A stretch of 64,000 bases of DNA from Candidatus Omnitrophota bacterium (GTDB taxonomy: Bacteria; Omnitrophota; Gorgyraeia; Aquiviventales; JACQRC01), in the NCBI GenBank assembly GCA_016206665.1, contig JACQRC010000089.1:8393-72392 (forward strand), written 5' to 3'. A program made the translations under genes and the position numbers. This document shows positions 3,444-13,028 of the stretch, one piece after another. The notes under the pieces were generated by a model that saw only the letters and a list, made by a program, of their open reading frames with translations, made no database searches and was not told the origin of the DNA. Every line of letters starts with the position of its first letter. Positions within the stretch are counted from its first letter, which is position 1.

Positions 3444-5144
3444 ATGAGCGGATACGGCAGCTTGTCGAAAGAGCAGTTGATCGACAAAATCAAACGCTTA
3501 CAAAAACGTAAGAAATTTGGATTGGTTTGGGAGGACAAACTCGAAGATGTGGCAGAGCTTTGTAAGACAAAATTACCCGTGCTGGTCGATGAAAAAGGAG
3601 AGGAAATTTCGGATAGCGTGGCCGAGACAGCAAATGTGTTGATCGAAGGCGATAATTATCATGCACTCTCGGTTCTGAATTATACGCACAAGGGGAAAAT
3701 CGATTTCATTTATATAGACCCTCCTTACAACACTGGTGCAAAAGACTGGAAATATAACAACGCCTTTGTGGATGCTCAAGACCCCTACAGACATTCCAAG
3801 TGGCTATCCTTCATGGAGAAACGCCTCAAATTGGCAAAAAATCTTCTAAGGGATCAGGGAATTATATGTGTAACGATTGACGATTATGAAATGCCTCGTT
3901 TGTGGTCGCTTATGGATGAAATATATAACGAAAGTAATCATCTCGGAACCGTGGTTATAAGAAACAATCCGAAAGGAAGGAAAACGAAAAGGAAGGTATC
4001 GCTAATTCACGAATACGCCTTGTTTTACGGGCGAAGCGGTAATGCCAAGATTCAGAAATTAGAGGTCGCACCAGAGGACAAAACGCATAACTATGTGAAG
4101 GATAAGGACGACTCATGGTATCTGCCCGGCAACCTGAGAAAACAGGGAGTTGATAGTTTGGCCGTATCGCCTAAGACTGGGAGGTTGTCGGATAGATACT
4201 ACCCCATATATTACGATCCCAAGACGGGCAAGGTGAGTACCACCAAGAGTAAGCAATCAATAAAGATTTTGCCCATAGATAAGGACGGACAAAAAAGAAT
4301 ATGGCGTAGAGCCAAGCAAGTCATCGATGAGATGTTTGAGAGGGGTGATGTGTGGTATCAGAAAACCAAGTACGGCAATCAAATATTTTATAAATTTAGA
4401 GGCGGATTAGATGGCGAACCGCCAGAAAGCATTTGGTATGAGTCGAAATTTTCAGCAAGCGAACACGGGACACAAATACTCGACACAATTTTGGGAGTGC
4501 GAGAAACATTTCAGTATCCGAAATCCCCATACGCTGTTATGGAATGTATAAAAGTTGCTACCGCAAGCAGGGACGCGATCATACTGGATTTCTTCGCCGG
4601 TTCCGGCACTACCGGCCACGCAGCCTTAGAGTTAAATAGTGAAGATAATGGAAATCGCCAGTTCATTCTTTGCACAAATAATGAGAATGGCATTTGCAGG
4701 AACGTATGCTATCCCCGCATCAGGAAAGTCATGGCTGGATATACAGACTCAAAAAAGAAAAAAATAAATGGTTTAGGTGGAAATCTCAAATATTTTAAAA
4801 CGGATTTTGTTGAAGCCGAGCCAACTGATAAGAACAAAAAGAAATTAACGGTACAAGCGACTGAAATGCTTTGCTTGAAGGAGGGGGCGTTTAGAACAGT
4901 TGTTAACAAAAAATCTTTCAAAATTTTCAAGAATGCGAACCATTACGTGGGAATCATTTTTGACCACACAGCCATCCCCGATTTCAAGCAAGCGATCGAA
5001 AAGCTACAAGGCAAATTTAGCGTATACGTGTTCTCTCTTGGTGATGATGCTTTTGATGAGGAATTCGAGGATGTAAAACAAAAAGTGAAACTCTCGCCTA
5101 TTCCTGACGCGATCTTGAGAGTCTATCGAAGAATCTTCAAATGA
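3444..5144 (+). CDS. mod: Type III restriction-modification system, DNA methyltransferase (Mod) subunit, N6-adenine, beta class
   Basis: DPPY motif IV (IYIDPPYNTG) precedes the AdoMet motif I (LDFFAGSGTTGHAA), i.e. the beta-class order typical of Type III Mod. Low-GC codon usage; stop overlaps the res start (ATGA). Confidence 0.85.
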   Translation: MSGYGSLSKEQLIDKIKRLQKRKKFGLVWEDKLEDVAELCKTKLPVLVDEKGEEISDSVAETANVLIEGDNYHALSVLNYTHKGKIDFIYIDPPYNTGAKDWKYNNAFVDAQDPYRHSKWLSFMEKRLKLAKNLLRDQGIICVTIDDYEMPRLWSLMDEIYNESNHLGTVVIRNNPKGRKTKRKVSLIHEYALFYGRSGNAKIQKLEVAPEDKTHNYVKDKDDSWYLPGNLRKQGVDSLAVSPKTGRLSDRYYPIYYDPKTGKVSTTKSKQSIKILPIDKDGQKRIWRRAKQVIDEMFERGDVWYQKTKYGNQIFYKFRGGLDGEPPESIWYESKFSASEHGTQILDTILGVRETFQYPKSPYAVMECIKVATASRDAIILDFFAGSGTTGHAALELNSEDNGNRQFILCTNNENGICRNVCYPRIRKVMAGYTDSKKKKINGLGGNLKYFKTDFVEAEPTDKNKKKLTVQATEMLCLKEGAFRTVVNKKSFKIFKNANHYVGIIFDHTAIPDFKQAIEKLQGKFSVYVFSLGDDAFDEEFEDVKQKVKLSPIPDAILRVYRRIFK

Positions 5145-7360
5145 TGCTTCTGAAAGATTACCAGAACAACGCCATTAAGGAATTGCTCGGAAAAGCCAAA
5201 AAGCTTATTACCTACGGCGACGCGAAACGCATGGTTTTTAAAGCCCCCACCGCATCAGGTAAGACAATCATGATGGCCGAGTTCTTAAAGCAGTTATGCG
5301 AAGACAGGGAAGTTCTCGCTTCGTTTTCGCTTATCTGGACGGCCCCAAGGCAACTGCACATCCAGAGCAAGGACAAGCTGGAACAGTATTACGAGACAAG
5401 CCGCGCCCTTAGGTGTTCCCTCTTTGAGGAATTGGATGACAAACGGATTGACGAAGGCGAAATCCTCTTTTTCAACTGGGAGAGCATCAACAAGAACGAC
5501 AACATTTACATCCGCGAAAACGAGCAGGACAACAATCTGTCAAATGTTATAAGCCGGACGAAGGAGGAAGGCCGGATAATCGTTCTCGTCATTGACGAGA
5601 GCCATCACCATGCTACGAGCGAAATATCGCAAAACTTAATCCGCGACATTGACCCGAAGCTGACCATTGAAGTATCAGCTACCCCTGCGATGGAAAGCCC
5701 GGATGAGATTGTCTCCGTTCAGCTTGAGGATGTTAAGGCGGAGGCAATGATCAAGAAAGCTGTTATATTAAATCCGGACTTTGAAAATGTTCTCAGGGAC
5801 AGAAAAATTCAGAGTCAGTTAAGCAAGCAGTCCGAGGAGTTAGTTATTGAAACTGCTCTTAAGAAGCGAGATGCCCTTAAAGAAGCCTACAAGAAAGAGA
5901 GAGTAGGCGTCAATCCGCTCATTCTTATCCAGCTGCCGGACAGGAAAACGTCGCTTGAAGATGTGATTAAGGACAAAGTTATCGCAGTCCTCAAGAACAA
6001 GCACAAGATCACAGCTGAAAGTGGAAAGCTGGCAATCCATCTGGCGGAGCATAAAGAGAATCTTGACGACATTTCTGATCCCTACAACGAAGTAGAAGTT
6101 TTGATATTTAAACAAGCCCTTGCCTTGGGCTGGGATTGCCCCAGGGCTCATATCTTGGTTCTTTTCCGAGACTGGCAGAGCTTTGAGTTTTCGATCCAGA
6201 CAATAGGACGGATCATGCGTATGCCAGAACCTGATCATGGTCATTACGACACTGAAATCTTGAATTACGGATATGTATTTACCAACATCGAAAGTATAGA
6301 AATCCAAGAAGACTTGGCCAGAGATTACATCACGATTCACGCTTCGAAGCGTGGACGTGAATATTCACCTCTGTCGCTGCTTTCTTGCCACTCCAAGCGG
6401 TATCGCGAGAAAACTCGTTTGGCACCAATTTTTATCAAAGTTTTTCTGCAGGAAACTGCTGCCTACAGTCTGAGCCAGAGAATAAGGAAAAAAGCGAAGG
6501 GATTAAGCGCAAGATTTATTTCTGATTATAAGGCCGAGAATGTTGATGCATTAGCTGGCGCAAGCATAATCGGCGACAGGGCCATTAGAGTAACTGGCTG
6601 GGATTTACAAAAGTATTTTGATTACTTCATACGAAAGAGCCTCGCGCCGTTCTACGCCGAAGACAGGTCTATAGGCAGACTAAAAGAGGCCATTTACGAA
6701 TTTTTTGAGCAGGTCATGGGGATGCGCTATGAGGTTGTTCAAGAAGAGATTGTTCAAACGGTTTTAAGCGAAGGAAACCTCGTGCATTTTATTAATGTGA
6801 TCGACCAAGCTAAGGACAAATACATTGACTACATTTCAAGGCGGGAAAAAGAGCTTGAATTTGACCAGGGATGGGAAGTGCCAGAAACCATTGGTTTCAA
6901 CGCTCGCTACGCTATCGAAGATCGAAAAAAGTCCATCATGCACCCCTTTTTTAAGAGTGAGTATTCGGGTGTCGAAGCCGCATTTATGACTTTTTTAGAT
7001 GAACAGGACAAGGTAGTCTGGTGGTTCAAGAACGAAGCCAAGAATCCGGCTTATTTTGCTGTTCTCTACGAGGAAGATGGCGACAAAAGACCATTTTACG
7101 TTGATTTTATTGTCCAATTGAAAGATGGATTGATTGGGCTTTTCGATACGAAGGCCGGTCTGACCCAAAAAGTAGCTGGCCCGAAAGTCAATGGGCTTCG
7201 GACATATGTTGGGGAACAGAACAAAAAGGGCAAGAGGCTATTTGGCGGGATCGTTACCAATACCGATGGTCGGAATTACGCCGGGCGATGGGTTTACTTC
7301 AATAGGGAAGGAAAGGAATTATCCGGCAGCCTGGATAATTGGGAGACTTTGGCTTTTTAG
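5141..7360 (+). CDS. res: Type III restriction enzyme Res subunit (SF2 DEAD/DEAH helicase-nuclease)
   Basis: Walker A APTASGKT, DEAH-like box VIDESHHH and helicase motif layout. Translationally coupled to mod; low GC. Confidence 0.75.
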   Translation: MMLLKDYQNNAIKELLGKAKKLITYGDAKRMVFKAPTASGKTIMMAEFLKQLCEDREVLASFSLIWTAPRQLHIQSKDKLEQYYETSRALRCSLFEELDDKRIDEGEILFFNWESINKNDNIYIRENEQDNNLSNVISRTKEEGRIIVLVIDESHHHATSEISQNLIRDIDPKLTIEVSATPAMESPDEIVSVQLEDVKAEAMIKKAVILNPDFENVLRDRKIQSQLSKQSEELVIETALKKRDALKEAYKKERVGVNPLILIQLPDRKTSLEDVIKDKVIAVLKNKHKITAESGKLAIHLAEHKENLDDISDPYNEVEVLIFKQALALGWDCPRAHILVLFRDWQSFEFSIQTIGRIMRMPEPDHGHYDTEILNYGYVFTNIESIEIQEDLARDYITIHASKRGREYSPLSLLSCHSKRYREKTRLAPIFIKVFLQETAAYSLSQRIRKKAKGLSARFISDYKAENVDALAGASIIGDRAIRVTGWDLQKYFDYFIRKSLAPFYAEDRSIGRLKEAIYEFFEQVMGMRYEVVQEEIVQTVLSEGNLVHFINVIDQAKDKYIDYISRREKELEFDQGWEVPETIGFNARYAIEDRKKSIMHPFFKSEYSGVEAAFMTFLDEQDKVVWWFKNEAKNPAYFAVLYEEDGDKRPFYVDFIVQLKDGLIGLFDTKAGLTQKVAGPKVNGLRTYVGEQNKKGKRLFGGIVTNTDGRNYAGRWVYFNREGKELSGSLDNWETLAF

Positions 7361-7462: not shown

Positions 7463-8620
7463 ATGACCCAATTTTCGGGTACTCTACTGGCAAGCGGCGT
7501 TGTAGCCGCAGCGACGACGGCCACCCTACAGTTCCGCAGCGTTAGATGGGAACGACGGAAAGAATTTCTCGAGCACCAGCTGCGGTTGTATGGTCCCGCC
7601 TACGCCCTAATAGCACAGAATCGCGATGCTTTTGAACGAATCAAGAGCATTCATGTGCAGGGTGAGAAGCGCTTGAGTGGTGTAATCGGGGCAGAGAAAG
7701 ACATTGATGCAACGATAGCGGTGGCAAACGAACACATCAGACGAATCGTCTTGAGTAATAATGAAATCCTTGAGGACATGCTTAAGAAGAATCTACACTT
7801 CATCGATCCGGATGACATCCAGCTTGTAACGCAATTTTTCCATGATATGGCCAATTTAAAGGTGGAGACCTCAGCAGACGTGGGAACAAAGTTACCACTT
7901 CTAATGGCGCTGGATCTTCCCAATATATCATTTATGCGGCCCGGCCTTATTGAGTGCTTTGAGCAAAGATTTAGGCAGAAACAGGTTCAGTTTCGAGAAA
8001 TGCTAGGGAGCAGCAAGAGGCATCAACGGGATTTGCCAACGAACAAAAGACCGCTTTGCGCTGTTGGTTTACCTCCACGCATCTGGCGGACGTTTGCTAT
8101 ACCTGTCTTGACCGGCTTGATGGTGGCGCTCTTCTGGCATTTCTTTGAAGTGGTAAAACCGTGGAAGATAACATTATTCTTACCCTATGCGTATGAATAT
8201 GCCTATAGAGGAGCCACCAACACTACAGGCAATCAAAGCAGAGAAATCCTGCCCGTCGTCCCCATCCGCGTGCGTCTTACTGACAAAGCGAGTGGGTTTG
8301 TGTTTGCCGTTCACAATGATAACATTCGGAGTCTCCACGGAGTCTCGTTACATCTGCAACTACCGCCGGGTGTTGAGGTGACTGATCCAGGACCATTCAG
8401 AGCGTTTTGGCCAAACGAGGAATACTTTTTCTCTTTTGGGGACGCGGTGTTGAATCACGGAGTTTTCTATGCGACTGAGGTGCGTAATACTGCAGGCGAA
8501 CTGAAGGGTTCGATTCAACTAAAATTCAGCCAGCCAAGAGAGTACGAGATAATAGCCACTGTGAGCGGAGAAGACATGCTTCCGGCAGAGAAGAAAATCA
8601 AAATTGTCGTAGTACCCTAG
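7463..8620 (+). CDS. hypothetical membrane-associated protein (385 aa) of unknown function in the defence island
   Basis: Long low-GC ORF. N-terminal hydrophobic segment and an internal TM (AIPVLTGLMVALFWHFF); no recognisable catalytic motifs. Confidence 0.45.
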   Translation: MTQFSGTLLASGVVAAATTATLQFRSVRWERRKEFLEHQLRLYGPAYALIAQNRDAFERIKSIHVQGEKRLSGVIGAEKDIDATIAVANEHIRRIVLSNNEILEDMLKKNLHFIDPDDIQLVTQFFHDMANLKVETSADVGTKLPLLMALDLPNISFMRPGLIECFEQRFRQKQVQFREMLGSSKRHQRDLPTNKRPLCAVGLPPRIWRTFAIPVLTGLMVALFWHFFEVVKPWKITLFLPYAYEYAYRGATNTTGNQSREILPVVPIRVRLTDKASGFVFAVHNDNIRSLHGVSLHLQLPPGVEVTDPGPFRAFWPNEEYFFSFGDAVLNHGVFYATEVRNTAGELKGSIQLKFSQPREYEIIATVSGEDMLPAEKKIKIVVVP

Positions 8621-8666
8621 ACGCTTTACGCTATCCATAATGCCCGAAGCGGTTATTGACAGAATT

Positions 8667-8712
8667 GGCCAGGTTGAACCTCAGCGGAACGTGGCCCGAG
8701 TGAATTAAGTAT
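8667..8712 (+). repeat. 46-bp repeat, copy 1 (hairpin-forming), left of the 8733-9200 gene
   Basis: ggccaggttgaacctcagcggaacgtggcccgagtgaattaagtat matches 9190-9235 at 43 of 46 positions. It contains an imperfect stem ggccaggtt / aacgtggcc. Confidence 0.7.
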
Positions 8713-8732
8713 CTGTCCATGGAGTTGCAGTC

Positions 8733-9200
8733 ATGGATGCAAAGATTGTTGTGAAAATTTTAGGTCTTACCATAACTTCGGCTGGCGTCGTTCTGAGCCT
8801 GCTCAATCTGAAGGGTTTTCTCAAGTACCCAGAGCGCCTAAATTTTGCGCATTTGGCGCTCGAAACGAGCGAAGGCATTCCGCTTTCGCATCCTGGAGCT
8901 AAGTCCTTTATGAGTCGCTTCCCGCCACCTCCAACAGACAGCAAGGGTACGTTCACTCACTTCGTAAAAAATGCAATACAATTTACTGGTGGCGGGACCC
9001 CATTGTCAGGCACTGTTAAATACATGTATCCTGATGGAAGGCGGACTGCTGCGGTCGCAACATTTGAAGACGTAAAGCGCTGGGCCGCAGAATCACGTTA
9101 TCCGTGGCTTGCCTGGTGGCTGACAGTCGTAGGACTTCTCATCACTAGTGCAGGTGTCTTTTGGGACTGGCGGACAGCAGATCCCACCGGGCCAGGTTGA
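8733..9200 (+). CDS. hypothetical two-TM membrane protein (155 aa)
   Basis: Hydrophobic helices at the N-terminus (KILGLTITSAGVVLSLL) and C-terminus (WLAWWLTVVGLLITSAGVFW). Low GC; its stop codon lies inside repeat copy 2. Confidence 0.4.
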   Translation: MDAKIVVKILGLTITSAGVVLSLLNLKGFLKYPERLNFAHLALETSEGIPLSHPGAKSFMSRFPPPPTDSKGTFTHFVKNAIQFTGGGTPLSGTVKYMYPDGRRTAAVATFEDVKRWAAESRYPWLAWWLTVVGLLITSAGVFWDWRTADPTGPG

Positions 9201-9235
9201 ACCTCCGCGGAACGTGGCCCGATTGAATTAAATAT
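9190..9235 (+). repeat. 46-bp repeat, copy 2, right of the 8733-9200 gene
   Basis: ggccaggttgaacctccgcggaacgtggcccgattgaattaaatat is a direct repeat of 8667-8712. Confidence 0.7.
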
Positions 9236-9276
9236 TGCGGCCCTCAAATCGTTTATTACTTTGGGTAATATTTTGC

Positions 9277-9305
9277 TTGACAAACATCCGGCCGGTTCGT
9301 ATAGT
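9277..9305 (+). promoter_or_regulatory. consensus sigma70 promoter TTGACA-N17-TATAGT driving the non-coding region upstream of the RT module
   Basis: Perfect -35 at 9277-9282, exact 17-nt spacer, TATAGT -10 at 9300-9305. The nearest ORF start is ~450 nt downstream. Confidence 0.6.
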
Positions 9306-9311
9306 GCTTCT

Positions 9312-9758
9312 GGTGGATCCGATGGGACCATCGGACGTTCGATCTTTGATAGCTGCTACCTCCTTTTACTTTTAGCGAGGCGCGGTACCAAGAGTCGCTG
9401 AGAAGCGGCTGACCAGCCTGCCCCATGAAGACACCGTCATCCAGGACAGCCAATAGTGCGGTTGTCAAGGAAGGCGGGGTCTGTACGAAGGAGCTGGCGC
9501 TGGGTTAGTGTTCGGGCATGTGGTAAGCCAGAGAATTAAGGTGACCTGAGGCCAGACCCACGTAGCAGAACACTGGAAGACCCGGAACCTGTTCCAGTTG
9601 GGCAAGCCTACCCGTGCGGGTAGGAAATGACGTAGGCAGGGGTTCCAGGATGTTTTGGAAGAAGACGGGATCGCTTCCCCTTCCCCGCGGTGCGCGCCGA
9701 GCTTATGCAGGGGTTCCGGGTGCGCAACCCGGCTAGCTGCAGAGGAGGTGATGAAACA
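9312..9758 (+). ncRNA. candidate structured non-coding RNA (retron msr-msd-like or other RT-associated ncRNA); boundaries approximate
   Basis: It lies between the strong promoter and the first plausible RBS/ATG (GGAGGTG..ATG at 9759), with no convincing ORF. Multiple perfect hairpins are present: ccgatgg-ga-ccatcgg (9320-9335), cctacccg-tgc-gggtagg (~9607-9625), ccgggt-gcgca-acccgg (~9714-9730) and actggaa..ttccagt (~9572-9598). ggggttccRgg is a direct repeat. Confidence 0.35.
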
Positions 9759-10004
9759 ATGAGTAAGTGGCAGCTTATTTCAAAGGTCCTGGAGTTGATC
9801 TCGAAGTTAGAAGAGATCATCACCAGCGAGGGGAAGCGAAATTCTGAAGCGTCTGAGCTTCAGGAGTGCAGGGGCGACCTCAGGACTCTGCTAAAAAAAC
9901 TGCGGAGCCCCGGCGAGTCGGTCAACCCGAACGAAGTTCTACTGCTGTCATATAAAGCCGTAGAACACATAGCCTCCTGGCTCGAAGGAAAAGAAGAGAA
10001 GTAG
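9759..10004 (+). CDS. small hypothetical helical protein (81 aa)
   Basis: AGGAGGTGA RBS 6-7 nt upstream of ATG 9759. Predicted charged/coiled-coil protein. May instead be part of the ncRNA. Confidence 0.35.
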   Translation: MSKWQLISKVLELISKLEEIITSEGKRNSEASELQECRGDLRTLLKKLRSPGESVNPNEVLLLSYKAVEHIASWLEGKEEK

Positions 10005-10116
10005 AAACGATCAGACGCGGAAGACCCGTCTTTACTTCCAACAATAAAGTTTCTCCTGCCATTTTTCCTTCCTTACAATACACCAAGAACCTAAAAAGCG
10101 AACAAGGACGAACATC

Positions 10117-10410
10117 ATGAACGTCGGTGAAGCAATAAAAACGCTGCGGGTGAGGCGGCAGATAACTCAAAAGTTCCTGGCAGAACGATGCGGGATTACG
10201 CAAGGCTTCCTATCCCTTGTTGAAAGAGGAGACAGGGAGCCAGGGTTTGACTTAGTTGAGAAGATATCAGAAACGCTAGGCGTCCCACCACAGCTTATAC
10301 TCCTGCTTGCTTGTGAGAAATACACGCGGGGCAAACGCTACTCAAAACCTTTAAGGAAGATTGCTTTGACTCTAGACGAGCTACTTCACGCCTATTCCGC
10401 CGCTTGCTAA
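10117..10410 (+). CDS. XRE-family HTH DNA-binding protein, translationally coupled to the reverse transcriptase
   Basis: HTH_XRE signature (ITQKFLAERCGITQGFLSLVERGDREP). Stop TAA overlaps the RT start codon (TAATG). Confidence 0.7.
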   Translation: MNVGEAIKTLRVRRQITQKFLAERCGITQGFLSLVERGDREPGFDLVEKISETLGVPPQLILLLACEKYTRGKRYSKPLRKIALTLDELLHAYSAAC

Positions 10411-11333
10411 TGCATCCTCATCGAGCAGGGTCCACCATTTTATCGCCTGAAGAATTCGGGCGAGTTTTGGGCTACGAGCCAGCCTTCCTCCAGGACATGG
10501 TTAAGAATATCGAAAAAAACTACAGCCCCTATTTGGATAGAACAGGAAAGAAGCCACGCTGGATTGCCAGACCATCTGAAACTCTTAAGGGCGTCCAGCG
10601 TAAGATTCTCGATAACTTCCTGGAACTGGTCTCGTTGCCGAATTACGTCATTGGTGGAGTAAAGGGAAGGAAACACGCAGAACATCCAAAGTTACACGTA
10701 GGCCACCCTATCGTTGTGACGCTTGACGTCAAAGATTGCTACCCCAATATCACTTATAAGCAAGTTCTCGAGGTGTTCCGCGAGATCGGATTCTCCAAAG
10801 AAGTTGCGGTTTTGGCTACACGGCTGACAACGTACAGACGTCGGCTACCGTTGGGTGCTCCTAGTAGTACTCAGCTTGCCAATTTAATACTGAAACCAGC
10901 GGTGACGCGTGTCTGCGCCCTCGCAGAACAGGCAGGATTGGATGTTGCGAGTCAGTATATAGATGATCTGGCTTTCTCGGGAGATCAACTGCCTAACGAT
11001 TTCATCACTCTGGCGATCCGAGAATTCTCAAGACACATGATTAAGATTAACCGCAAGAAAATTCAAGTTATGCGTAGAGGCCATACACAACTTGTGACAA
11101 GAAGGCTGGTGAATGCTCGGGTCGCTCTGCCCACAAAGGAAAGACACAGAGTTAGGGCTGCACTTCACCAGCTCGGTAAGCTTGAAGCAAGTGATTCCTC
11201 ATATAGCAAGCAGTTCCTCAGTGTGCGTGGACGGATTCTCTCTTTAAGGAAATTACATCCACATCTTGGGCAACGTCTGATGGCGCAGCTCAACAGTCTG
11301 CAGAAGTCCACAACCAAGAAAACATCGCACTAA
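10410..11333 (+). CDS. retron-type reverse transcriptase (~307 aa, Ec86-like)
   Basis: RT motifs are present: 1-2 IVVTLDVKDCYPNI, 4 LPLGAPSSTQLANLIL, 5 YIDDLAFSG (YxDD). A retron-like C-terminal region is present (KKIQVM..QLVTRRLVN, corresponding to the VTG motif). The block order and many residues parallel the E. coli Ec86 retron RT. There is no maturase/X or endonuclease domain. Confidence 0.8.
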   Translation: MHPHRAGSTILSPEEFGRVLGYEPAFLQDMVKNIEKNYSPYLDRTGKKPRWIARPSETLKGVQRKILDNFLELVSLPNYVIGGVKGRKHAEHPKLHVGHPIVVTLDVKDCYPNITYKQVLEVFREIGFSKEVAVLATRLTTYRRRLPLGAPSSTQLANLILKPAVTRVCALAEQAGLDVASQYIDDLAFSGDQLPNDFITLAIREFSRHMIKINRKKIQVMRRGHTQLVTRRLVNARVALPTKERHRVRAALHQLGKLEASDSSYSKQFLSVRGRILSLRKLHPHLGQRLMAQLNSLQKSTTKKTSH

Positions 11334-11554: not shown

Positions 11555-12202
11555 ATGGTAAAACTTTTCCTCGATATAGAAACCCTGCCCGCTGAAGAGT
11601 CCTTCAAAGCTGAAATTCAGAAGGGGATTCTTGCGCCGCGGGGTCCTAAAAAGAAGGCGGCAAAGGTCGCCGCGGCGCCAGCGACACCTAAGGAACTGGA
11701 AGAGCAATTGCGACAAACGGCCCTCAGCGGGGACTTTGGGCGAATTCTCTGTATTGGATACTGTAAAGAACCTCCTGCGGGGAGTTCTGCTGAGATACTG
11801 CAGGGTGGCGAGCGCGAGATATTGGAAAAGTTTTGGGTGATTGCGAGAGATGTCGATCTTTTTATTGGGCACAACGTTATGGAGTTCGATTTAAGGTTCA
11901 TCTACAAAAGGTCGATCATTCACAAAGTGAGGCCGACGAAAAACGATTTGAGCTTCGCACGATATCGCAGCCAACCAATCTACGACATCATGCGAGAGTG
12001 GGAAAAGTGGGACGTACAGACGTACACCTCTCTTGACAGAATGGCCAAAGTTTTGGGATTGGAGACTTCAAAGAAGGGACTGTCTGGAGACAAGGTTTAC
12101 GACGCTTTCCTGGCTGGGAAACTTAATGAGATCTACGAATATTGCAAGGCGGATGTTGAGCTGACGAGGCAGATTTATAAGCGAATGAATTTCGAGATCT
12201 AG
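11555..12202 (+). CDS. predicted 3'-5' exonuclease related to the exonuclease domain of family-B DNA polymerases (DEDD/RNase H-like fold)
   Basis: N-terminal LFLDIETLP (Exo I DxE). A C-terminal YCKADVELT (Exo III YxxxD) is present. Length ~215 aa, typical of stand-alone PolB-like exonucleases; low GC like the RT. Confidence 0.65.
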   Translation: MVKLFLDIETLPAEESFKAEIQKGILAPRGPKKKAAKVAAAPATPKELEEQLRQTALSGDFGRILCIGYCKEPPAGSSAEILQGGEREILEKFWVIARDVDLFIGHNVMEFDLRFIYKRSIIHKVRPTKNDLSFARYRSQPIYDIMREWEKWDVQTYTSLDRMAKVLGLETSKKGLSGDKVYDAFLAGKLNEIYEYCKADVELTRQIYKRMNFEI

Positions 12203-12382: not shown

Positions 12383-12417
12383 TTGACATGCATAAAAACT
12401 CATGCTATCTTATGCAT
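12383..12417 (+). promoter_or_regulatory. sigma70-like promoter (TTGACA-N17-TATCTT) overlapped by the inverted repeat ATGCATAA-N14-TTATGCAT (operator) for vapBC
   Basis: -35 at 12383-12388, -10 at 12406-12411. Palindromic arms lie at 12388-12395 and 12410-12417. Confidence 0.5.
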
Positions 12418-12430
12418 TGGAGGTGACCCC

Positions 12431-12631
12431 ATGCGGACGACCCTGGACATCAACGCGCGGTTGCTGCGGGACGCCATGCGGCGCGCCCGCCTCAAGACGA
12501 AGACCGAGACGGTGGAGCGCGGGCTGGAGGAGCTCATCAATACCGAGCGGCGCCGGCGGCTGATCCGAGCCCGGGGCGCGGGTTACGGATTGACCTTCGA
12601 GGACTTCCTGCGTTCCCGCCGGGATGAGTAG
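12431..12631 (+). CDS. vapB: type II antitoxin, VapB-like
   Basis: Small Arg-rich protein immediately upstream of, and overlapping by 8 nt, a PIN-domain gene. ATG at 12431 follows the GGAGGTGA RBS. Confidence 0.7.
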   Translation: MRTTLDINARLLRDAMRRARLKTKTETVERGLEELINTERRRRLIRARGAGYGLTFEDFLRSRRDE

Positions 12632-13028
12632 ACAGCTCGTCCTCGCGGACACCTCGGTCTGGGTGGCGCACCTGACCGGGCGTCACACAGCGGTGACGAA
12701 CGCCCTGCAAGAGCTCCTGTCCGCACACCGCGTGGCCGTCAATGCCGTGATTCGGCTCGAGCTGTTGACCGGCGCCCGGGACGAGGCCCAGTACGCCGAA
12801 CTCGATGACGCCCTGGGCGGCTTGCACGCGGTGGAGCTGACGGAGGCCGTCTGGCGCCAGGCCGAGCGGCTGCGGTTCGACTTGCGACGGCGCGGGCGGT
12901 TGATTCCCGCCCTGGATGTGCTCATCGCCTCCTGCGCGATGGCGTATGATTGCGCCGTGCTGCATGCCGACCGCCACTTCGACTTCATCGCGCGCAGCGC
13001 TCCACTGACGATTCATCAGCCCGCCTAA
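12624..13028 (+). CDS. vapC: type II toxin VapC (PIN-domain ribonuclease)
   Basis: PIN-domain acidic residues (LADTSVW.., ..LELLTGA.., ..PALDVLIAS..) and size ~134 aa. Confidence 0.8.
   Translation: MSRQLVLADTSVWVAHLTGRHTAVTNALQELLSAHRVAVNAVIRLELLTGARDEAQYAELDDALGGLHAVELTEAVWRQAERLRFDLRRRGRLIPALDVLIASCAMAYDCAVLHADRHFDFIARSAPLTIHQPA

Follow-up and report, generated by a model that had tools for sequence, protein, structure and literature searches.

The locus described here raises the question of what lies in some 450 nucleotides (nt) between a strong promoter and the first credible start codon of a retron operon. The stretch occupies positions 9306-9758 of the window, the whole 64 000 nt of DNA analysed, which derives from a metagenome-assembled genome (MAG) of Candidatus Omnitrophica. 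In an earlier note on this DNA, the stretch was described as a hairpin-rich non-coding transcript at the position expected for the msr-msd of a retron, with a small RNA (sRNA) or a leader controlling the reverse transcriptase (RT) operon offered as alternatives. Based on comparison with related loci, it is very probably the non-coding 5′ two-thirds of the hybrid RNA of a Type VI retron. The conserved unit is a long structured leader base-paired to the coding sequence (CDS) and the 3′ flank of a gene for a small protein (SP), with the SP translation signals predicted to be masked. Two long-range covarying sets of helices couple the non-coding part to the SP CDS and to a site 21-37 nt past the SP stop codon.

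Type VI was the last retron type without a known non-coding RNA (ncRNA) until late 2025, and only Retron-Vpa2 and Retron-Sen3 have been dissected, with conflicting mechanisms; reports of this kind of anti-phage system date only from 2025-26. The lineage of 15 loci investigated here is independent, divergent and uncultured, and its possession of the same landmarks, with heavy covariation, supports the hybrid-RNA architecture as general to the type. The locus is a divergent addition to a kind already described; its worth lies in comparative evidence and in a lesson for annotation, not in a new principle. The lesson is that a long 'empty' leader before a cassette of a tiny ORF (open reading frame), a helix-turn-helix (HTH) gene and an RT gene belongs to the retron.

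A Type VI retron and its relatives

The promoter, the transcript and the genes of the locus are listed here, with coordinates of the window.

9277-9305, + strand: sigma-70-type promoter, TTGACA at 9277-9282, a 17 nt spacer and TATAGT at 9300-9305, with 11 of 12 consensus matches
9312-10045, + strand: predicted hybrid RNA, with covarying helices across the whole range and both ends placed by analogy with the RNA-seq-defined RNAs of Vpa2 and Sen3
9759-10004, + strand: SP, a small protein of 81 amino acids (aa) and putative toxic effector, the mRNA of which is within the structured RNA and has a strong Shine-Dalgarno (SD) sequence
10117-10410, + strand: Cro/C1-type HTH protein, PADLOC HTH_VI 2e-19 over the full profile, Pfam HTH_3 1.7e-13
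10404-11333, + strand: retron RT, overlapping the end of the HTH gene by 7 nt, Pfam RVT_1

The RT matches the PADLOC model RT_VI over its full length (8.1e-57, 190.6 bits), the top score of 37 retron RT models and followed by RT_III-A (1e-50), and on this profile score it would fall in the Type VI clade. NCBIfam retron RT models match it only below their cut-offs. An SP-HTH-RT order, with the HTH gene upstream of or overlapping the RT gene, is the Type VI layout (Mestre et al., 2020, summarised in 10.64898/2026.04.27.721009), and the window has this arrangement. The retron context recognised in the earlier note is therefore right (HTH_VI 2e-19, RT_VI 8e-57). The ORF at 9759 is more than the opening gene of an RT operon, being specifically the toxin-like SP of Type VI retrons.

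Relatives were gathered through the RT, using RT-alignment scans, single-protein look-ups and tblastn. There are 27 database relatives, all metagenomic, the closest being 52-54 % identical. Fourteen distinct loci had enough upstream DNA for comparison (RT 42-54 % identical) and share the promoter, ncRNA, SP, HTH and RT; together with the window these make up the set of 15 loci to which all counts below refer. An SP homologue, 29-45 % identical to that of the window, is encoded between the ncRNA and the HTH gene in all 14 relatives, as is the HTH protein itself, and the structured RNA is tied to a retron RT in all 15 loci. The genes flanking the retron in the window, ORFs of 385 aa and 155 aa upstream and a PolB-exonuclease-like ORF of 215 aa downstream, are without homologues in the related loci. 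They are therefore ruled out as members of the system, and the unit consists of promoter, RNA, SP, HTH and RT. Searches of annotated plasmids (in protein mode) and phages (in DNA mode) found no close relative; a match on a Photobacterium plasmid was rejected, due to its missing HTH and SP layout.

The SP has no family match and is predicted to fold as three helices (AlphaFold from the single sequence, pLDDT 86). By analogy with Vpa2 and Sen3, it would be toxic, and it is possible that it belongs to the heterogeneous 'Large' lineage of Type VI.

At a position that in the window RT falls within residues 229-237, QLVTRRLVN, the usual residue in retron RTs is the G of a 'VTG' motif. The clade keeps Q-x-V-T-x-x-x-V-N, with R or K after VT. 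In two loci of the clade, L075 (1136-3139) and L076 (3041-4993), the RT is followed by differing ORFs of 199-251 aa and a DUF2779 protein, which suggests variable downstream cargo.

A structured RNA that extends into the SP gene

Each + frame of 9306-9758 contains 4-10 stop codons. The mechanical list of ORFs includes some of 40-77 aa on both strands, yet these are not conserved, and the relatives differ by non-triplet indels; conservation in the interval tracks helices, not codons. A conserved protein gene here, which would have contradicted the earlier note, is thus very unlikely. Folding of 9306-9775 gave a minimum free energy (MFE) of -201 kcal/mol, compared with -176 +/- 7 for dinucleotide shuffles (z = -3.56), with 0 of 100 shuffles as good. 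The earlier picture of some 450 nt after the promoter as hairpin-rich and free of ORFs is therefore upheld, as are its perfect hairpins (9318-9324/9329-9335, of 7 bp; 9393-9399/9404-9410; 9445-9451/9460-9466; 9607-9613/9618-9624; and 9716-9721/9727-9732).

What does not hold is the limit at 9758. Pairing partners extend to 10041, and rather than a separate non-coding transcript ending at 9758, the interval most likely forms the leader of a hybrid RNA in which the ORF at 9759 is included. A consensus scan found no terminator-like site on the + strand before the SP gene. Read-through as a long 5′ untranslated region, which the earlier note had set against its own proposal, is how Type VI hybrid RNAs are organised.

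The predicted elements of the RNA, other than the direct repeats considered further on, are listed in order.

9318-9335, + strand: 5′ hairpin, with 6 of 7 pairs changed on both sides and 99 % of cells paired, ending 5 nt before GATCTTTGA
9341-9357, + strand: 5′ inverted repeat (IR), GATCTTTGA followed by AGCTGCT, the partner of which is SP codons 4-10 at 9769-9788
9358-9365, + strand: anti-SD ACCUCCUU, pairing with GAGGAGGU at 9742-9749 in the MFE fold
9374-9389, + strand: 5′ arm of helix H8, partner 9689-9703
9389-9394, + strand: conserved junction CAAGAG, with no change at A9390 or G9392 in any locus (alignment A4, columns A139 and G141)
9393-9410, + strand: hairpin H2, with 6 of 6 pairs changed on both sides
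9416-9637, + strand: variable domain, with hairpins in the MFE fold at 9429-9482, 9490-9595 (long, irregular; candidate msd) and 9607-9624
9655-9669, + strand: IR5, 5′ arm of the inverted repeat bracketing the riboregulator and SP, partner IR3
9671-9682, + strand: 5′ arm of helix H7, partner 9828-9839 in the SP CDS, a perfect 11-nt complement
9689-9703, + strand: 3′ arm of H8, partner 9374-9389
9716-9732, + strand: hairpin H9, beside the downstream direct repeat, with 3 of 5 pairs changed on both sides
9742-9749, + strand: SD region of SP, with GGAGG at 9744-9748
9769-9788, + strand: SP codons 4-10, which pair with 9341-9357, from the fold and the duplex table
9794-9821, + strand: hairpin in the SP CDS, from RNAalifold on A4
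9828-9839, + strand: 3′ arm of H7, SP codons 24-27, from covariation
10025-10041, + strand: IR3, 3′ arm of the bracketing inverted repeat, starting 21 nt past the SP stop codon

The 15 sequences were aligned with MAFFT (alignment A4) and a consensus fold was obtained with RNAalifold. In the window, the H3/H4 region is misaligned by MAFFT, and the helices there were therefore read from the window's own fold. RNAalifold and pair counts support 62 pairs in eight helices, with 94.1 % standard pairs and 47 pairs changed on both sides. There are 153 cells changed on both sides; none of 500 shuffles reaches any of these measures, and slid controls are 34-49 % paired. Covariation among the relatives is thus strong. 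The helices are 9318-9335, three more hairpins of the 5′ domain, one of them H2 (9393-9410), then 9716-9732 and 9794-9821, and the long-range pairings 9661-9668/10026-10033 and 9669-9680/9830-9841.

Eleven loci carry GATCTTTGA without any change, as does the window; it or a variant with one mismatch is present in 13 of the 15, about 60 nt past the -35 box and 316-445 nt ahead of the start of SP. It was not found at that position and orientation in more distant RT loci. Nearly all of the 15 loci have a CCUCC-like element, and GGAGG or GGGGG precedes the start codon by 8-12 nt in all of them. The SD of the window is predicted to be unpaired with a probability of 0.10 (mean across the loci, 0.18), compared with 0.35 for all bases.

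Rfam 15 returned no match at gathering thresholds for the whole window; in 9150-10150, at E values up to 10, the only matches were a snoRNA and the leuA motif (E = 1.8-3), which are taken as chance. No tRNA or tmRNA was found.

Two competing sets of long-range helices

Because long-range pairings are shifted out of register by MAFFT, they were evaluated by duplex energy instead, comparing the two segments of the same locus (cognate) with segments from other loci (non-cognate) in 5000 permutations for each pairing. The 5′ inverted repeat with the first SP codons gave -20.1 kcal/mol for cognate and -12.5 for non-cognate segments; IR5-IR3 gave -17.8 versus -10.8; H7 gave -22.8 versus -12.8; and H8 gave -18.9 versus -11.7, with 0 of 5000 permutations as good in every case. 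IR5-IR3 is formed in all 15 loci, with 5 of 8 pairs changed on both sides, and H8 is likewise formed in all 15, from differing sequences. In H7, 9 of 12 pairs are changed on both sides, the arms in the different sub-clades being, for example, GCUUCCCC/GGGGAAGC, GUUUGUUCGGUC/GACCGAGCAAAC and GCUCUCCCU/AGGGAGAGC. The permutations ignore kinship, yet the arms differ on both sides between sub-clades, which is covariation. The pairing of anti-SD and SD showed no discrimination (522 of 5000) and rests on folding alone; both elements are conserved, so this comparison is uninformative for them.

The a1/a2-like repeats, which the earlier note could not identify by eye, are therefore present and covary, as 9341-9357/9769-9788 and 9374-9389/9689-9703, with the anti-SD/SD pairing 9358-9365/9742-9749 in addition. 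These form a covarying composite stem that joins 9341-9389 with 9689-9788, and the invariant G9392 is located just past its 5′ arm. From this position, just 3′ of an a1-like arm, G9392 is a candidate for the priming (branching) guanosine; the branch point itself is not readable from sequence.

The helices fall into two sets. Set A consists of 9341-9357/9769-9788, anti-SD 9358-9365 with SD 9742-9749, and 9374-9389/9689-9703. Set B consists of 9655-9669/10025-10041 and 9671-9682/9828-9839. Sets A and B, which are conserved to an equal degree, cross, so no nested fold can hold both; as modelled, the RNA would either alternate between two folds or form a large pseudoknot. For 9311-10050, the MFE fold (-294.4 kcal/mol) is one with set A. 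A fold made to include set B is 1.7 kcal/mol less stable (-292.7) and has the SD and AUG in the loop of 9735-9740/9770-9775. Over the 15 loci, the difference A minus B has a mean of -4.8 kcal/mol, ranging from -14.5 to +3.8. In 13 of the 15 loci, fold A leaves none of the SD unpaired; in fold B it is partly open. The two sets pinpoint the mutations to be tried.

The direct repeat TAGCTGC, which had been seen before at 9350-9356 and 9734-9740, is where it was reported. Its two copies are alternative partners of GCAGCU at 9770-9775 (SP codons 4-6), in folds A and B, respectively. In one relative (L069), the copy near the SD and its target change together (GUUGC/GCAAC).

Past the SP stop codon, 10013-10040 contains a hairpin (AGACG..CGUCU) followed by UUUACUU, overlapping IR3. 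It was not called a terminator in the consensus scan; it could be a weak terminator or a processing site that sets the 3′ end of the hybrid RNA.

Direct repeats that change in concert

A second direct repeat, ggggttccRgg in the earlier note, was also borne out, as TAGGCAGGGGTTCCAGG and TATGCAGGGGTTCCGGG at 9633-9649 and 9704-9720. Its exact cores are named R1 and R2.

9636-9646, + strand: R1, GCAGGGGTTCC, just past the variable domain and 8 nt before IR5
9707-9717, + strand: R2, GCAGGGGTTCC, 71 nt after R1, within the riboregulator and with H8 on one side and the SD on the other

The repeat is exact over 11 nt and extends up to 17 nt with two mismatches. An exact pair of at least 7 nt is present in 14 of the 15 loci, with an R1-R2 spacing of 62-78 nt, and the repeated sequence differs by sub-clade (GCAGGGGTTCC, AGGGGCTA, ACAGGGCTCC, TTTGAGGCT). 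When the R1 zone is taken as its complement, the R2 zone of the same locus is its best pairing partner (0 of 5000 permutations). No RNA complement of the repeat is conserved elsewhere in the transcript across the 15 loci. Copies in the same orientation cannot pair with each other as RNA, so their concerted change is best explained by pairing through a cDNA copy or by a common protein partner. The co-evolution of the repeats is consistent with, rather than proof of, the DNA-RNA pairing proposed by Zhang et al., and bears on the proposal that multicopy single-stranded DNA (msDNA) opens the translational lock of the toxin.

The MFE fold of the window places 9711-9715, the core of R2, within an internal loop. 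At 9580-9589, on the 3′ strand of the long hairpin, ACCCGGAACC is a perfect 10-nt complement of 9712-9721, in R2. It was considered as a general RNA partner of R2 and rejected, based on the absence of a conserved complement in any relative; it looks specific to this locus.

The promoter and a candidate operator

The promoter at 9277-9305 is the only strong promoter-like site within 8500-11000 in the consensus scan. The sigma-70 promoter of the earlier note is borne out, both by its 11 of 12 matches and by its -35 and -10 positions, which are conserved throughout the 15 loci of alignment A4. Transcription would be expected to start at about 9311-9313, judging from the promoter spacing. Immediately upstream of the promoter is a further element.

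9254-9270, + strand: candidate HTH operator, the palindrome TATTAC-N5-GTAATA, separated by 6 nt from the -35 box downstream

The palindrome is exact in nine loci and aligned in 13 of the 15. The two loci with the most divergent HTH proteins (L007 and L016) have another palindrome at the same site, ATTTCTT..AAGAAAT. It is probably the operator of the retron's own HTH protein, and its conservation suggests autoregulation by that protein. The words 'operator' and 'palindrom' are absent from the text of the Sen3 preprint (10.64898/2026.04.27.721009), and the passages available from the Vpa2 and Sen3 preprints make no mention of a transcriptional layer in which the HTH protein acts at a promoter operator.

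Proposed mechanism

In Retron-Vpa2 of Vibrio parahaemolyticus, msDNA accumulates only on triggering and is required, even in trans, for derepression of SP (10.1101/2025.10.22.683967). There is about an even chance that derepression of this kind, by analogy, operates at the locus described here. One transcript would begin at the promoter at 9277-9305, take in the structured region and the 81 codons of SP, and end at the inverted repeat near 10041. Pairing of 9341-9389 with 9689-9788 would then bury the SD and the first ten SP codons, leaving SP untranslated. The RT would copy the variable long hairpin domain (~9490-9650) into msDNA, with priming probably near the CAAGAG junction at 9389-9394; within this domain, the long hairpin at 9490-9595 is the likely template. 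msDNA carrying the complement of R1 would bind R2, beside the ribosome-binding site (RBS), so that the lock opens and SP is translated, and the infected cell would be killed or arrested by SP. In this scheme we infer where the transcript starts and stops, that it is reverse-transcribed, that SP is toxic, that the HTH protein represses and what the trigger is; the genes, the promoter, the covarying helices and the co-evolving repeats are observed.

A fuller version, in which the competing conserved helix sets, the retron cDNA as a trans-acting DNA riboregulator and HTH control at the operator together make up a two-state device, is put forward tentatively and is, on present evidence, rather doubtful. 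If true, the concerted change of R1 and R2 without an RNA complement would be phylogenetic, and not only genetic, evidence for activation by DNA-RNA pairing.

Alternative explanations

Several points weigh against the hybrid-RNA reading and the derepression built upon it. Likeness to the Vpa2 and Sen3 RNAs was judged by their described landmarks, not by sequence or a covariance model, and Rfam has no family matching the hybrid RNA region. The distance from the 5′ inverted repeat to the AUG is 418 nt here (316-445 in the clade) compared with ~280 nt in the cl2075 lineage to which Sen3-type retrons belong. A word-index search with the SP returned only the SP itself, recorded from a Candidatus Omnitrophica MAG, and comparison of the 15-sequence SP alignment with three cl2075 (Sen3-type) SPs rebuilt from Table S3, cl2075 being one of the named SP clusters of Type VI (cl2075, cl2760, cl3272 and cl3897), gave an hhalign probability of 1.9 %. 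Homology to the Sen3-type SPs, considered due to their like length and helical layout, is therefore not claimed, as the profile comparison is not significant. The 5000 permutations of each duplex test take no account of kinship among the sequences. The ensemble probability of being unpaired is 0.32 and 0.33 for the two repeats, compared with 0.35 overall, and so they have no preference for loops. Finally, Sen3 works with constitutive single-stranded DNA (ssDNA) and post-translational control of SP by the HTH protein, and therefore the derepression step may not apply here. The same RNA and genes could act in that way, with ssDNA and SP made constitutively, SP neutralised post-translationally by the HTH protein, and activation by a host signal such as RecBCD inhibition; the RNA structure would then be template and RT scaffold rather than a translational switch. 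This is a real possibility, with the odds somewhat against it. Such a mode has been demonstrated in a Type VI retron that shares the landmarks seen here (10.64898/2026.04.27.721009), the clade SP is ~80 aa, as in Sen3, and fold B leaves the SD partly open at little energy cost. However, the masking of the SD in the lowest-energy fold of 13 of the 15 loci and the co-evolution of the direct repeats have no obvious role in a post-translational scheme, and no sequence similarity of the SP to Sen3-type SPs was found.

Control of SP, and of the HTH-RT genes, by a purely cis-acting, riboswitch-like leader that is never reverse-transcribed, the RT using another template, would account for the sequestered SD and AUG and the two competing folds, and msDNA is hard to detect in most Type VI retrons (10.64898/2026.04.27.721009). 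It is nevertheless unlikely, given the strict linkage between the RNA and a retron RT throughout the 15 loci, the retron-like landmarks (terminal inverted repeat, short 5′ hairpins and long variable hairpin), the absence of a match to any known riboswitch family, and the repeats that co-evolve without a conserved RNA complement, which a cDNA copy explains best. The earlier suggestion of a controlling leader was partly right as to translational control, while the RNA is also likely to be an RT template. The primary suggestion of that note, an msr-msd within 9306-9758, is very improbable in its canonical form, closed by a1/a2 and giving abundant msDNA as an antitoxin. A retron RT does lie downstream, 9341-9389 does pair with 9689-9749 in an a1/a2-like stem, and the invariant G9392 is just inside the 5′ arm. 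Its covarying partners, however, continue past 9758 into the SP CDS and beyond the SP stop codon, there is no Rfam msr match, and no separate effector gene is conserved besides SP and HTH. Moreover, the Type VI retrons tested have no detectable resting msDNA, or msDNA that is not the antitoxin (10.1101/2025.10.22.683967; 10.64898/2026.04.27.721009). That the interval is a free-standing sRNA or holds a missed protein gene can hardly be right: the strong promoter and the mechanical ORFs would suit it, yet there are stops in all + frames (4-10), non-triplet indels, conservation by helices rather than codons and no terminator-like site on the + strand before SP.

Genomic surroundings

The retron is located in a low-GC island at ~3.3-12.3 kb (43-54 % GC, with flanks of 59-68 %), together with a Type III restriction-modification (R-M) system. 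The R-M pair is upstream of the retron at 3444-7360, with the methyltransferase at 3444-5144 (PADLOC MTase_III, 6.8e-81) and the restriction/helicase subunit at 5141-7360 (PADLOC REase_III, 2.1e-16). Between this pair and the retron promoter are the ORFs at 7463-8620 (385 aa) and 8733-9200 (155 aa), neither with a Pfam or PADLOC match. Just downstream of the RT, the 215 aa ORF at 11555-12202 is related to PolB 3′-5′ exonucleases and is RNase H-like (PF10108, 3.4e-16; PF13482, 1.1e-10). It is not conserved beside the related retrons; a nuclease next to a cDNA-producing system may merit attention. At the right edge of the island is a PIN-domain protein (12624-13028; PF01850, 2.5e-13), probably a VapC-type toxin, and the short ORF at 12383-12631, which ends at the start of the PIN gene, could be its antitoxin.

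Comparison with known retron systems

Canonical msr-msd RNAs, such as that of Retron-Eco1 (Ec86), lie beside the RT and have a terminal inverted repeat, short 5′ hairpins followed by a long hairpin, and a G inside the 5′ arm. The RNA described here likewise adjoins the RT and has a closing inverted repeat, short 5′ hairpins before a long hairpin, and a conserved G. It differs in running into a protein gene, the translation signals of which join the closing stem, in its second, crossing set of long-range helices and in having no Rfam msr match. By analogy with Vpa2, its msDNA would be expected to be an activator, not an antitoxin.

The hybrid RNA of Retron-Vpa2 is ~470 nt and consists of the msr-msd and the CDS of the toxic SP; it has three arms, with the RBS and AUG in stem-loops and a 3′ end that pairs back to the template arm. 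It also has a conserved 7-nt direct repeat, present once in the msd and again in the riboregulator, for which DNA-RNA pairing was proposed (10.1101/2025.10.22.683967). The locus investigated here has the same order of promoter, structured ncRNA, SP, HTH and RT, with the SP CDS inside the structured RNA and the RBS and start codon predicted to be sequestered. The inverted repeat past the SP stop codon pairs back to the template domain (9655-9669/10025-10041), and of the pair of direct repeats, one is on the 3′ side of the template and the other in the riboregulator. In contrast to Vpa2, the predicted RNA is ~730 nt, and its repeat has a length of 11 nt, or of up to 17 nt if two mismatches are allowed; the SP, of 81 aa and three predicted helices, has a sequence unrelated to those fragments of the Vpa2 SP that have been published. 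Its host is a MAG of Candidatus Omnitrophica, the locus being known from sequence alone.

In the cl2075 lineage and Retron-Sen3, ssDNA and SP are constitutive and the HTH protein is a post-translational antitoxin; the RNA landmarks are a stem-loop upstream from the 5′ inverted repeat, the RBS in the basal stem, and IR1-IR2 flanking SP (10.64898/2026.04.27.721009). The 5′ hairpin at 9318-9335 fits the conserved cl2075 stem-loop found upstream from the 5′ inverted repeat, and the variable domain at 9416-9637, which varies in both length and sequence among the relatives, resembles the variable SL3/DSL region of cl2075 retrons. The two also share a long internal stem-loop with a variable centre, an SP of ~80 aa, IR1-IR2-like pairing around SP and RNA structure within the SP CDS. 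Differences are seen in the SP, which has no significant profile similarity, and in the taxa, which are uncultured groundwater and sediment bacteria here, a new host lineage, and Beta- and Gammaproteobacteria in cl2075. The inverted repeat flanking SP covaries in the 15 loci, whereas its counterpart in cl2075 had no significant covariation (10.64898/2026.04.27.721009).

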